Shown piece by piece: positions 2,826-17,745 of a stretch of DNA of 21,351 nucleotides. The first letter of the stretch is position 1; the number at the start of each line of letters is the position of its first letter. The notes under the pieces are model-generated. The model did not search any database. It was given only the letters and a program-made list of their open reading frames with translations, and had not been told where the DNA came from. This DNA comes from a virus (lineage: Duplodnaviria > Heunggongvirae > Uroviricota > Caudoviricetes), in the IMG/VR virus record IMGVR_UViG_2861043448_000004, positions 1 to 21,351 of that record; one strand, given 5' to 3'. Position numbers and translations under genes: made by a program.

Positions 2826-3074
2826 ATGCGTATTGAAATCTGCATAGCCAAAGAAAAAATGACTAAAATGCCAACCGGTGCTGTGGATGCGTTAAAGGAA
2901 GAATTAACCCGACGCATCAGTAAACGTTATGACGATGTAGAAGTGATCGTAAAAGCCACCAGCAACGATGGCCTTTCTGTTACGCGCACCGCTGATAAAG
3001 ATTCAGCTAAAACTTTTGTTCAGGAGACTCTGAAAGATACCTGGGAGTCTGCTGACGAGTGGTTTGTTCATTAA
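2826..3074 (+). CDS. DinI-family SOS-response protein (prophage copy)
   Basis: 82-aa translation [11 protein letters not shown]...[11 protein letters not shown] resembles E. coli DinI (MRIEVTIAK...TWESADDWFV) end to end; AGGGGA Shine-Dalgarno 5 nt upstream; preceded by LexA boxes. Confidence 0.85.
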
Positions 3075-11807: not shown

Positions 11808-12178
11808 TTCTGCCCCCACAAACAGACTTCACGCTCAATCTCCCGACGAGTCATCAGTCCTTTCCATTGCTTACCGCCAGCGTATGTCCAGCGACGTAGC
11901 TGATCACACGCACCTTTGATATCGTCCCGGTTGATTTTGCGAAGAAGCGTCGATGTTCTGAAATTTCCAGTATCCGGAGGAAACAACACGATCTCCACTG
12001 AAGCAGGTGCCGACGTTGGTTTCGGCAGACGACGTAACTGCTCAACTATTGCTGCGCACGCCGCGCTCTGAAATTTTCGCCCCGCCTCGCTTATCAGGCT
12101 CTTACCAGCAAATGCCCCTTTGTTGGGGTGTCGCCAGTACGTGTTCACACTGGGCGGGAAAGGAAGGATCAACTTCAT
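11804..12178 (-). pseudogene. Chimeric ORF: RusA resolvase N-terminus fused to endolysin C-terminus
   Basis: Residues 1 to about 68 (LPFPPSVNTYWRH...VEIVLFPPD) resemble RusA (LPWPPSNNRYYRH...) but stop before the catalytic acidic cluster; the remainder [54 protein letters not shown] matches the C-terminus of a DLP12 RrrD-type lysozyme (from memory). Confidence 0.6.
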
Positions 12179-14460: not shown

Positions 14461-14693
14461 GCTGCACCTCCGAGATGCTTCATGTTTTTTCCGGAGCGAA
14501 AGGCTATAAGCGGCATACTGACGCGGTAATTACGGCCCAGCGGTTCACAAATCACCTTCTGGCATTCACGGTCAACCAGGCTAACACGTAGAACATGCCC
14601 TGCAGGTGTGGTGTACCACTGCCCAACTGTAGGAATTGATGTTTTTTTACGCTGAAGCAAACGGCAAATATTGAGGATCAACGGATTAAGCAT
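14457..14693 (-). CDS. Hypothetical small phage protein (78 aa)
   Basis: ORF with ATGA-type overlaps to both neighbours in the early-right operon; no recognised family. Confidence 0.45.
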   Translation of the reverse strand: MLNPLILNICRLLQRKKTSIPTVGQWYTTPAGHVLRVSLVDRECQKVICEPLGRNYRVSMPLIAFRSGKNMKHLGGAA

Positions 14694-15522
14694 GACGATG
14701 CCCTCCGCTGATATTCAGGAGACGGTGAATATGAAAATTAGCCTTATCCGCCAGACGAATACGTTCAGCCTGCAAGTTAAGAAGGGTTTCTACCAGAACT
14801 TGATGCGCCTGCGGATCCGAAAGAGTTACCTTGCGCAGAGCACGTAGTGCAGTTGTTACATAACTGAGTTTATGTAAGTCTTCATCATTCAGACGAGTGA
14901 GGGCTGGGACAGTAGCCATGATGGCAGCCTCCGATAACAGTGAATTACCTTCACCACCGGAAACGCCAATTTCGCTGGTGGTGAACTGAACGGGGTTGGC
15001 GTAACCGGCGTTATCGGAAACCGGCGCACCTTTCGGTGCCCCCGTCCAGCCCACCATAATTTGGGTGTGCACAGACGCAGACGATAAAAAAGACGCTGGC
15101 GCGTCATATATCGCCGATAACATTTCCAGGACGCCAATCCCGGCACCCGCTTTATAAGGTGCCTGAACAGTGTAACGTCCCGGAATGGCAGAATCAATGT
15201 GCTGGTGGTCCTTCACACTCAACAAAATCACGCCTGAATTTCCACAAAGGACTAAAGCACTCATGCGGGTAGTCTTTGCGAAGATAGATAACGCGCTGTG
15301 TTTCTGGCTCCCAACGAATAACATGGACATAAAGCCCTCTTCCGTCACGAAACCAGCGGTTAAGTTCCTGCACAACTCGCCCCCCACAGTCAGGTAAAGT
15401 TCTCTGTGGTTACTTACAGCCAGGTGATTTGGTAATCTGCATTCATGCCGTAACAACAGGTGTTCAGCGACACTGACCACCAGCTGTTGCGACAAACGGT
15501 TATTTGCCGTTAAACTGTTCAT
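14686..15522 (-). CDS. Hypothetical phage protein (278 aa), possibly YdaU-like
   Basis: Long intact ORF, translationally coupled to the upstream gene; family assignment tentative and from memory only. Confidence 0.5.
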   Translation of the reverse strand: MNSLTANNRLSQQLVVSVAEHLLLRHECRLPNHLAVSNHRELYLTVGGELCRNLTAGFVTEEGFMSMLFVGSQKHSALSIFAKTTRMSALVLCGNSGVILLSVKDHQHIDSAIPGRYTVQAPYKAGAGIGVLEMLSAIYDAPASFLSSASVHTQIMVGWTGAPKGAPVSDNAGYANPVQFTTSEIGVSGGEGNSLLSEAAIMATVPALTRLNDEDLHKLSYVTTALRALRKVTLSDPQAHQVLVETLLNLQAERIRLADKANFHIHRLLNISGGHRHA

Positions 15523-16082
15523 GCGTTAGTTTCTCCACAGACACAAAACGCCACGACGCCCGGAGCTGCACACTCGCGGGCGTCACTCTTTTCTGGAGCG
15601 CAAAAGATTTTGTAGACCAGTGCTGCATGCTCCTGGAGCTTCGAAATTGACAGATACAACTCATCATTAATTGCTGTCTGCTCGTGTGGCTCCACTACCC
15701 CATCTTCGATTGCCGAACGAATCTGCTTTGAGTAACTCCCGATCTGTTCGATGACTTCCAGCAGGCGCTGGTTTATATCGGCGTTCTCTACTTCCTCAAT
15801 TTCAGGAAGCGATACAAACACCCCACCAGCAGACTGTGCGACAGCATCCGCAATGTAGTGAGTGCCAGCCGCGCGCTGTAAAATCATTGCCCATCCCAGC
15901 GGGAAAATCTGATCGCCATCTGCACGAAGGCGGTTGAATAAAGCGTTCTCTGTTACATCCAGCCACTCAGCAGCTTCAGCGTAACCCCCCGGCAACGCCG
16001 CGATAGTTTTTCTGACAGCTTTCACGTACCACTCAGGCTGTTTTTCTACTTTCCAGTGATGCTTACCCACGGTTAGCCTCAT
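15519..16082 (-). CDS. Putative CII-like early regulatory protein (187 aa)
   Basis: Sits immediately downstream of the cro-like gene in the cII position; identity inferred from position more than from sequence. Confidence 0.4.
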   Translation of the reverse strand: MRLTVGKHHWKVEKQPEWYVKAVRKTIAALPGGYAEAAEWLDVTENALFNRLRADGDQIFPLGWAMILQRAAGTHYIADAVAQSAGGVFVSLPEIEEVENADINQRLLEVIEQIGSYSKQIRSAIEDGVVEPHEQTAINDELYLSISKLQEHAALVYKIFCAPEKSDARECAAPGVVAFCVCGETNA

Positions 16083-16113: not shown

Positions 16114-16314
16114 TTAATCTTTCGGATAGATATCCGGTCTTAAGTCAGATTTCGTAATTGCACCTGACGTGCATTGCTCAAGTTTTTTAGCCAGCACAAA
16201 ACTGGCTTTTTTATAACCATTGAAAACCAGCCGTAAGTAGCCTGGTGTTGAGCCAACTTTTCCGGCCAACTCACCCTGCTGTTCTTTGGTTAAAGAGTCC
16301 CAATACGCTTTCAT
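16114..16314 (-). CDS. Cro/YdaS-family HTH regulator
   Basis: 66 aa from the ATG at 16314 (GGAGGT Shine-Dalgarno 7 nt upstream); MKAYWDSLTKEQQGELAGKVGSTPGYLRLVFNGYKKASF...LRPDIYPKD resembles Rac YdaS-type Cro proteins; divergent from CI. The 167-aa track ORF over-extends across the operators. Confidence 0.65.
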   Translation of the reverse strand: MKAYWDSLTKEQQGELAGKVGSTPGYLRLVFNGYKKASFVLAKKLEQCTSGAITKSDLRPDIYPKD

Positions 16315-16320
16315 ACAATA

Positions 16321-16387
16321 TGTACCTCCGGTATACATATTACATGATTGAGATGAACCTTCAAGATACTTGTACCTTATCGGTACA
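16321..16387. promoter_or_regulatory. OR-like operator cluster with divergent pR and pRM-like promoters
   Basis: Three 17-bp sites of form TGTACC-N5-GRTACA: TGTACCtccggTATACA (16321..16337), TGAACCttcaaGATACT (16354..16370), TGTACCttatcGGTACA (16371..16387). Minus-strand pR candidate TTGAAG-16-TAATAT; plus-strand TTGTAC (16370..16375) and TTTAAT (16393..16398) would place the transcript start at the CI ATG (leaderless, as for lambda pRM). Confidence 0.5.
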
Positions 16388-16404
16388 AAGGTTTTAATTT
16401 CTTT

Positions 16405-17079
16405 ATGAAAACAGTCCATGACATCCGGCGGTCTAACGCCAGAAAACTGAGAGATGGTGTTGGCGGGAATTCTTCCTTTGCCACCATGATTGATCGCGAG
16501 CCAACCCAGACCAGCAGGTTTATGGGAGATGGTGCAACTAAAAATATCGGTGACAGCATGGCACGGCACATCGAAAAATGTTTCGACCTGCCTGTCGGAT
16601 GGCTTGATCAAGAACACCAGACAACGAACATCACAAAAAAACCTGACGTTTCAATCACTAACAAACAAATAACGTTAGTCCCTGTCATATCATGGGTACA
16701 GGCCGGAGCATGGAAAGAAGTTGGCTATTCTGAGGTTGATTTGAGCACAGCAGAAACTTATCCCTGCCCTGTACCCTGTGGCGAAATGACTTATATCTTG
16801 CGGGTGATTGGTGATTCAATGATTGATGAGTACCGCCCGGGAGACATGATTTTTGTTGATCCTGAAGTCCCTGCCTGCCACGGTGACGACGTTATTGCAT
16901 TGATGCACGATACAGGCGAAACCACCTTCAAGCGGTTGATAGAAGATGGAACACAGCGTTACCTCAAAGCATTAAACCCAAACTGGCCTGAACCTTACAT
17001 TAAGATCAACGGTAATTGCTCTATAATTGGTACAGTGATTTTCTCAGGAAAACCAAGAAGATACAAAATAAAGGCCTAA
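16405..17079 (+). CDS. CI-like prophage repressor with LexA-type S24 autopeptidase domain
   Basis: 224 aa; N-terminal HTH; Ala-Gly cleavage site in WVQAGAWKE; catalytic Ser in VIGDSMIDEY and Lys in TTFKRLIEDG. Confidence 0.85.
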   Translation: MKTVHDIRRSNARKLRDGVGGNSSFATMIDREPTQTSRFMGDGATKNIGDSMARHIEKCFDLPVGWLDQEHQTTNITKKPDVSITNKQITLVPVISWVQAGAWKEVGYSEVDLSTAETYPCPVPCGEMTYILRVIGDSMIDEYRPGDMIFVDPEVPACHGDDVIALMHDTGETTFKRLIEDGTQRYLKALNPNWPEPYIKINGNCSIIGTVIFSGKPRRYKIKA

Positions 17080-17091
17080 TCAATATTTATA

Positions 17092-17113
17092 ACCTGCTTC
17101 GGCAGGTTTTTTT
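17092..17113 (+). terminator. Intrinsic terminator after the CI gene
   Basis: ACCTGCttcgGCAGGT hairpin followed by TTTTTTT. Confidence 0.65.
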
Positions 17114-17117
17114 ATAC

Positions 17118-17161
17118 TTGACAATGTACCCTTAAGATACATAATGTATCTATAGGATACA
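17118..17161 (+). promoter_or_regulatory. pL-like promoter overlapped by two operator sites
   Basis: TTGACA (17118..17123), CATAAT (17140..17145); operators TGTACCcttaaGATACA (17125..17141) and TGTATCtatagGATACA (17145..17161) share the half-site family seen in the OR region. Confidence 0.5.
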
Positions 17162-17745
17162 TAACACAGGCAAGATTAAACTAAATTTGGTTGTAACACG
17201 GCGTATGGCACATGCGTCGTTAGCGGTCTGGGGACGTTAAAGGGGACAATCCACTCCTTGCTCGGGCAAACAAACCAGGTAGCCGGAATGTGCAAGTCAA
17301 TGATGATGCTGATAAGACGCCTAACCAGCGTGGCGATCCGGTTTGACGCCTGGGAAGAGACCAGGGTGCAACGATGAGGGCATTTATGGAACCGCGACAA
17401 AGTGTGGTGCCGTAACTGGCTAAGTGCTCTCAGCGTTGTGGTAATCCGCGAAATGGCGCGGCGGTAAGTATGGCGGGGTTACTCTTTCCCCGTTGAGGAC
17501 ACCGGATTGTCAGGTTGACCATACGCCTGAGTGACAACCCCACCACAACAGCCACTGCTTTGGCGGTACCAGTTTGTACACTTGCTTCCGGCTGGTACCG
17601 CTCTTTTTACAAAACAGAGAAGAGCATCACCGGACGACGGGCTCATAACCCAATCCATCCGGGCGGCTGCCACCGCAGGTGTTCTTCTCTGTTTTGTGGA
17701 GAAACCAACCGACCTTGCAGGGTCGATATGATGAGGAGCAGCAAA

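Follow-up and report, generated by a model that had tools for sequence, protein, structure and literature searches.

The window (the whole stretch of 21,351 nucleotides that was analysed, from the Caudoviricetes record IMGVR_UViG_2861043448_000004) carries a phage repressor gene, cI, and a cro gene, which are transcribed divergently from a gap of 90 bp. The cI gene (16405..17079, plus strand) encodes a repressor of 224 aa, which was assigned to the YmfK/CohE type by its Peptidase_S24 domain and its near-identity to YmfK. The cro gene (16114..16314, minus strand) is an open reading frame for 66 aa of the YmfT/CroE type with a GGAGG Shine-Dalgarno sequence at 16325-16329; the Pfam matches of its product, to YdaS_toxin and HTH_3, are sub-threshold. 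After cro lies a gene of the CII family (15519-16082, Pfam Phage_CP76), and downstream of both there are strong Rfam matches to the C4 antisense RNA and IsrK (14974-15162, minus strand). In the SfV and Ayreon records, the C4/IsrK matches sit in an open reading frame labelled "immunity region". PhiR49_1 and PhiR49_1_star were also considered as possible immunity-escape mutants, and this idea was rejected: the 31 differences between them all fall in the genes for terminase, portal and tail, and the switch has none.

The Pfam Peptidase_S24 domain covers residues 93-212 of cI with an E-value of 1.5e-26. The protein aligns to the C-terminal domain of lambda cI, with TFKRL falling on TFKKL of lambda. 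Residues A100-G101 (VQAGAW), S138 (GDSM) and K176 (TFKRL) are invariant, and they are the counterparts of the lambda cleavage site and of its Ser/Lys catalytic dyad. Since these residues match, RecA-stimulated self-cleavage would be the expected route of induction. For the N-terminal domain, 17 sequences were compared with Pfam, and no HTH model matched any of them even at E<=1; nothing was found in NCBIfam to which the domain could be assigned. A profile of the domain matched the DNA-binding domain of SPC32H Rep (PDB 5D50) with an E-value of 3.8e-8, as well as a PDB entry named "phage repressor protein CI" with an E-value of 4e-4. The single-sequence AF2 model of residues 1-92 had a pLDDT of 59.8, which is too poor for use.

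Three promoters are predicted around the repressor gene. The pR-like promoter of cro (16337..16364, minus strand) consists of the -35 element TTGAAG at 16364..16359, a 16-nt spacer and the -10 element TAATAT at 16342..16337. Its predicted +1 lies near 16330, and the leader of cro would be about 16 nt long and contain the GGAGG. The pRM-like promoter (16370..16405, plus strand) has TTGTAC at 16370-16375, a 17-nt spacer and TTTAAT at 16393-16398; at the usual distance of 7 nt, its +1 would be the A of the cI ATG (16405). Both promoters match the consensus at 8 of 12 positions and fall below the threshold of the promoter scanner. Their position and the comparison of species nevertheless suggest that both are promoters; in pR, the TTG of the -35 is kept from species to species, and so is the -10, which reads either TAATAT or CATAAT. 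The pL-like promoter (17118..17145, plus strand) has the structure TTGACA-16-CATAAT, matches the consensus at 11 of 12 positions and is directed away from cI. Its predicted +1 is near 17152, and the promoter sequence is invariant in all relatives. Upstream of it lies the intrinsic terminator of cI (17091..17108, plus strand), AACCTGCTTCGGCAGGTT followed by a T-run, which is also conserved in the relatives. Downstream of pL there is an ORF-poor leader of about 570 nt and then YfdP/YfdQ-like genes. We considered this leader as a structured RNA of the switch and rejected it: it had no Rfam match at E<=1, its MFE z-score was -1.6, and it is mosaic among the relatives.

The original prediction placed five dyad sites on these promoters, three between cro and cI and two over the pL-like promoter, and five are found at these places. 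We call them putative operator sites A to E. Site A (OR1-like, 16321-16337, TGTACCTCCGGTATACA) has one mismatch to the symmetrised pattern TGTAYC-N5-GRTACA and scores 12.5 bits; it starts at the last T of the pR -10 and spans the predicted pR +1 and the Shine-Dalgarno sequence of cro. Site B (OR2-like and weak, 16354-16370, TGAACCTTCAAGATACT), with two mismatches and 9.3 bits, overlaps the pR -35. Site C (OR3-like, 16371-16387, TGTACCTTATCGGTACA) is a perfect dyad of 23.7 bits that overlaps the -35 and the spacer of pRM. The spacer of pL is filled by site D (OL1-like, 17125-17141, TGTACCCTTAAGATACA), a literal match to the pattern with 22.4 bits, which overlaps the pL -10 by 2 nt. Site E (OL2-like, 17145-17161, TGTATCTATAGGATACA) fits TGTAYC-N5-GRTACA exactly and scores 19.6 bits; its first base is the last T of the pL -10, and it extends over the pL +1, in the same geometry as A on pR. 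The centres of A, B and C lie at -76, -43 and -26 relative to the cI start. The distance between centres is 33 bp (3.1 turns) for A and B, 17 bp (1.6 turns) for B and C, and 20 bp (1.9 turns) for D and E.

The form first proposed for all five sites, TGTACC-N5-GRTACA, turned out to be literal for C and D only, with a chance expectation of 0.00, while A, B and E deviate from it at one or two positions. Sites with two mismatches to the symmetrised pattern are expected 1.89 times per window, and a single such site is not significant; two unrelated ones occur in the window, at 11969 and 20140. The whole 21-kb window was scanned with a weight matrix trained solely on sites C and D of relatives outside E. 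coli. The five highest positions were the five sites, and the next best reached only 4.1 bits. Five positions scored at least as high as site B, whereas 0.37 were expected from shuffles. Sites A, B and E were accepted on the basis of two independent tests, the weight matrix and the conservation across species. Chance is excluded as the origin of the dyads.

Conservation was assessed in relatives defined by a match to the N-terminal domain, with one genome per species and the phages yong2 (Hafnia) and EPP-1 (Edwardsiella) added. The footprint set covered about 24 enterobacterial species with 25 distinct OR regions, together with 26 distinct OL regions, and the genera represented include Escherichia, Pantoea, Klebsiella, Serratia, Rahnella, Proteus and Edwardsiella. 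No indels between A, B and C were found in the 25 distinct OR regions, and in nearly all relatives the sites start at -84/-85 (A), -51/-52 (B) and -34/-35 (C) from the cI ATG. Information content is high in the half-sites. In site C the half-sites do not vary at all over the 25 distinct sequences, and the N5 is free to vary, with an information content near zero. Site B keeps the same two deviations (TGaACC and ACt) in all relatives. Site D is a full dyad with a variable N5 in every relative. Site E keeps its left half in all of them; about nine divergent species have lost the right half, which otherwise mostly reads GAAACA. Among 104 loci, the usual form of E is TGTAYC-N5-GAAACA, with one mismatch, and the perfect dyad is unique to this window. 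The motif is absent from distant relatives in which the identity of the N-terminal domain drops to about 36%, and in Variovorax a different repeat of its own stands on both sides of the repressor gene. Comparison of half-sites with the recognition helix across related prophages had been proposed as a check, and it turned out that the TGTACC half-site, wherever it is retained, goes with a nearly invariant putative recognition helix, T-Q-x-S-R. The overlap with promoter elements, the phylogenetic footprint and the loss of the motif together with a different N-terminal domain all point to an operator family shared by both promoters, as was originally suggested.

The repressor gene was also predicted to have a leaderless transcript, with a pRM-like -10 lying 7 to 12 nt before the cI ATG and no Shine-Dalgarno sequence. 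TTTAAT occupies exactly these positions. The stretch from the in-frame stop at 16354 to the cI ATG contains no start codon, and the protein alignment of the relatives is conserved from residue 1 onward. Every relative has a -10-like hexamer (T[TCG]TAAT, TTAAAT, GAGAAT or TAGAAT) 6 nt before the ATG, rarely 7-9 nt, and the bases between the hexamer and the ATG are not conserved. The energy of the anti-Shine-Dalgarno duplex upstream of cI is -3.4 kcal/mol here and on average -2.4 kcal/mol over 24 relatives, compared to -1.9 +/- 2.4 for random sequence. Thus, no Shine-Dalgarno sequence for cI was detected in any relative, and the pairing energy equals the random background. For cro, the pairing energy is -11.3 kcal/mol (range -10.6 to -11.6), and the GGAGG is invariant in all relatives. 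Leaderless repressor mRNAs form a class to which lambda cI transcribed from pRM, racR, dicA and ymfK belong. In K-12, Romero et al. (2014) placed the ymfK transcription start at 1202156, which is the gene start (RVS_(I)-1202156, class I, leader 0; PMC4681348, Table S3), and ymfK is one of five leaderless E. coli mRNAs (PMC4681348; also Fig. 2E). The cI of the window is identical to YmfK at 223 of 224 residues, and in the e14 allele the -10 is unchanged and again stands 6 nt before the ATG. The leaderless nature of the cI mRNA is thus supported by experiment on the near-identical K-12 e14 allele. Such an mRNA would be translated without a Shine-Dalgarno sequence, as is lambda cI from pRM.

We read this region as the lysis/lysogeny switch of an e14/SfV-type lambdoid prophage, with the five dyads as the predicted binding sites of cI and Cro, and we put the probability of this reading at about 85%. 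Judging from the sequence, cI dimers, through the TQ-x-SR recognition helix of the N-terminal domain, and Cro dimers would bind the dyads. Sites A and B, 33 bp or about 3 helical turns apart, would shut off pR, A from its position over the +1 and the cro Shine-Dalgarno sequence and B over the -35. Sites D and E, 20 bp or about 2 turns apart, would shut off pL, D in the spacer and -10 and E over the +1. Because C overlaps the -35 and the spacer of pRM, its occupation would repress cI synthesis. Binding of excess cI to C may provide negative autoregulation, or binding of Cro to C may lead to lytic commitment; by analogy, C may be the first target of Cro. The centre of B, at -43, is within 1 bp of that of lambda OR2 (-42), and by this analogy B may activate pRM. 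After DNA damage, RecA-stimulated autocleavage of cI would free pR and pL. The e14 genes are DNA-damage inducible, and CohE has been described as a CI-like, SOS-responsive repressor. Unlike in lambda, B and C abut, and cooperative or alternate pairing therefore cannot be assumed. In addition, the site that matches the consensus best, C, is the one placed over the pRM -35, and the sites may therefore be filled in another order than in lambda. In the literature searched, no EMSA, footprint or ChIP result turned up for the binding of YmfK/CohE or YmfT/CroE to these sites. The region may also combine a non-lambda mode of autoregulation, in which the strongest and most conserved site, C, lies on the repressor's own -35 next to an abutting weak B at -43 and OL has two sites, with CohE-type operators as the cause of damage induction in e14-type prophages. 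We propose this joint reading tentatively and consider it somewhat less probable than its opposite.

It is possible, although unlikely, that the true operators are A, C and D only and that B and E are conserved as promoter sequence. Site B has a low score. The bases that it conserves fall on the TTG of the pR -35 and on the first T of the pRM -35, and a role as promoter sequence could be enough to explain why they are kept. Site E coincides with the pL discriminator and the initial transcribed region, and its right half is degenerate in most relatives, up to the loss seen in the divergent species. However, neither -35 hexamer includes the half-site positions at which B retains TGAACC and GR-AC. 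Different genera have retained the left half TGTACC of E as well as its common right half, GAAACA, and the site is placed on pL as A is on pR. Moreover, both B and E are among the top five of the window under a matrix that was not trained on them. Very little probability remains for the dyads being LexA boxes or sites of another host factor, with LexA directly controlling induction. Induction of most e14 genes has been reported to depend on LexA cleavage, and 13 predicted weak LexA boxes were cited (PMC11228462). Nevertheless, no CTGT-N8-ACAG with up to one mismatch is present in 16315-16404 or 17118-17161, the dyads have the form TGT-N11-ACA, a spacing unlike that of the LexA box, and the motif vanishes together with the type of N-terminal domain in distant relatives. 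A dependence on LexA cleavage is also expected indirectly, since cleavage of the repressor needs RecA amplification, as is seen for lambda in lexA(Ind-) strains.

We find it even harder to believe that the palindromes act as RNA hairpins or terminators and not as DNA binding sites. The terminator scanner did flag site C with the T-rich stretch that follows it, but this stretch corresponds to the pRM -10 region, and most relatives have no T-rich sequence there; the terminator reading of C was rejected on these grounds. The stems are merely 6-7 bp long. The same dyad also occurs in the untranscribed spacer of a promoter (D) and on both sides of divergent promoters. Another alternative concerns the transcript: a CII-dependent promoter of the pRE type, located within cro or past it, could supply most of the cI message as a longer, leadered transcript, and the start at the ATG would then give a minor maintenance transcript. 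Lambda uses pRE for establishment, and a CII-family gene follows cro in the window. We consider this improbable. A transcript of the pRE type would complement the leaderless pRM transcript and would not replace it, no pRE-like promoter was identified in the window, and there is no upstream Shine-Dalgarno sequence to serve a leadered transcript. In the K-12 lysogen, the class I start is at the ATG (PMC4681348). The further suggestion that the operators define the immunity specificity of the prophage can be kept in part: they are probably one component of it, but the C4/IsrK-type RNA module located nearby, downstream of cro, means that they are not its sole determinant.

The immunity region itself is already known and very common, and in this sense the finding is not new: an operator region is annotated in SfV, the leaderless start has been published, and the region is present in 1323 of 5426 complete E. 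coli genomes, where the RefSeq gene names are ymfK and ymfT. In the literature searched, which did not include the SfV genome paper and Mehta 2004 (e14), neither the operator consensus nor the exact operator 17-mers were found. The induction of e14 has been attributed to weak LexA boxes (PMC11228462), and the e14 genes have been called a YmfT regulon (PMC10602906). A Reg-Seq preprint included the ymfT and ymfJ promoters, and its text gives no footprint for either. The operator model offers a simpler account of e14 induction than weak LexA boxes or a YmfT regulon. CohE-type operators, and not LexA boxes or a YmfT regulon, may be what makes e14-type prophages inducible by DNA damage. About one in four complete E. 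coli genomes carries such a prophage, and Stx2c- and Cdt-I-converting phages are of this type. What is read here is a standard lambdoid switch, so the value of the result is practical and not conceptual. It lies in an explicit operator model backed by conservation, with the consensus TGTACC-N5-GGTACA, five sites and a defined promoter geometry. This model could help to predict heteroimmunity among co-resident prophages, and footprinting, ChIP and experiments with a non-cleavable repressor are easy to design from it.

We compared the switch with known systems. In e14 of E. coli K-12, where the two regulators are ymfK/cohE and ymfT/croE, the OR has six differences in 131 nt, none of them in promoter hexamers, spacing or consensus positions of the half-sites. 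The terminator, pL and site D have the same architecture as in the window. Site E of e14 is TGTACCCAAGAGAAACA, compared to the perfect dyad of the window. After about 17165, the pL leader and the downstream genes differ: ymfJ follows in e14, and the ORF-poor leader with YfdP/YfdQ-like genes in the window. The Shigella phage SfV (U82619), cdtI, Stx2c-converting phages, Ayreon and SfIV have 97.5-98.8% nucleotide identity to the window over cro, cI and OL. The "putative operator region" of the SfV record corresponds to 16320-16388 of the window and spans A to C, the promoter annotated in the Ayreon record corresponds to 17118-17145, and both records annotate the cI terminator. SfV has a different insert downstream of pL, and the exact site E of the window occurs in none of the relatives compared. 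No N gene was recognised in the window, and SfIV, SfV and SfII are likewise without a recognised N gene (PMC3851460). SPC32H Rep, from a Salmonella phage (PDB 5D50), is a tetramer on DNA and is switched off by an antirepressor (PMC9638917), whereas the cI of the window has an S24 self-cleavage domain. The residues of the recognition helix differ from those of SPC32H Rep, and the operators are therefore expected to differ.

The N-terminal domain of cI has no detectable sequence similarity to the lambda, 434 or P22 repressors. The operator, promoter and repressor properties of lambda used for comparison here are established knowledge. As in lambda, cI and cro are divergent with three 17-bp dyads between them, operators lie over pL beyond cI, the second site is centred at about -42/-43, the cI mRNA begins with its AUG, and the repressor is an S24 autopeptidase with Ala-Gly, Ser and Lys. 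Unlike in lambda, the half-site is TGTACC and not TATCAC, OL has two sites and not three, the spacings are 33, 17 and 20 bp instead of 23-24 bp, and the OR3-like site C is centred at -26 over the -35, compared to about -19 for lambda OR3. Thus, as originally proposed, the layout mirrors the OR/OL arrangement of lambda with a different recognition sequence, and it departs from lambda in the number of OL sites and in the spacings.

The window's site E, a putative OL2-like operator at 17145-17161, reads TGTATCTATAGGATACA, a perfect dyad, and this sequence was found in no other of the 104 fetched loci. The closest relatives carry TGTATCTAAAAGAAACA at this site, which differs from that of the window by three substitutions; of these, one brings the window's site back to the consensus half-site. 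The perfect site E may lead to a tighter repression of the pL-like promoter in the window's lineage. E. coli AR434 matches the window at 100%.

The pL-like promoter is followed by a leader of about 570 nt (17162-17727) in which no convincing ORF was found. Its base composition is G-skewed, with a GC content of 55%. Within the leader, a hairpin with a T-run spans about 17563-17608, and a second, long hairpin, ACAAAACAGAGAAGA...TCTTCTCTGTTTTGT, spans about 17609-17697. A search of Rfam at E<=1 gave no match for the leader, and its MFE z-score was -1.6. A putative terminator is placed between pL and its genes, although the phage has no recognised N gene. Across the relatives the leader is mosaic, and sequence comparison shows that it is absent from both phage SfV and the E. 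coli K-12 prophage e14. Immediately after site E, a conserved pL-leader sequence, …acaggcaggacgcccacgaagtagccgcc…, recurs in many relatives, e14-type E. coli loci among them (switch loci L005, L009-L013, L015, L017, L019 and L028); the window lacks it at the same place. In Hafnia phage yong2 (locus L003) the position of the ORF-poor leader is occupied by a tRNA-Gly(CCC) gene (2472-2545, + strand), which is another indication that the pL-leader slot is a mosaic cargo site.

The start codon of the repressor is probably mis-annotated in the GenBank records of both yong2 and Edwardsiella phage EPP-1 (locus L004), where the positions to be compared are 1606 vs 1723 and 1586 vs 1520, respectively. 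The repressor in the yong2 record is too short and loses its DNA-binding domain; that in the EPP-1 record is extended upstream and runs through the operators. The true start in both phages is likely the conserved MKT..., which a -10 hexamer precedes at a distance of 6-7 nt.

Downstream of cro and cII, the minus-strand segment 14974-15162 strongly matched two Rfam families, C4 antisense RNA with 82.8 bits and IsrK with 63.7 bits. Both matches are nested in an ORF (14686-15522, minus strand) that has a Pfam Phage_ASH domain and whose homologues are labelled "immunity region" in the GenBank records of phages SfV and Ayreon. This segment looks like a second immunity module, RNA-based and similar to those of P1 and P4.

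Two perfect tandem LexA-type boxes, CTGT-N8-ACAG (2768-2783 and 2796-2811), lie between a tyrosine-recombinase-like ORF (1668-2765, + strand) and an 82-aa ORF (2826-3074, + strand) that appears DinI-like by eye. The latter is an ordinary prophage cargo gene with predicted SOS regulation.

In Variovorax paradoxus (locus L030), a distant relative whose cI homologue has 36% identity in the N-terminal domain, TAGCGAAACGCG-like repeats flank the repressor gene on both sides. The OR/OL architecture is like that of the window, but the specificity is different.
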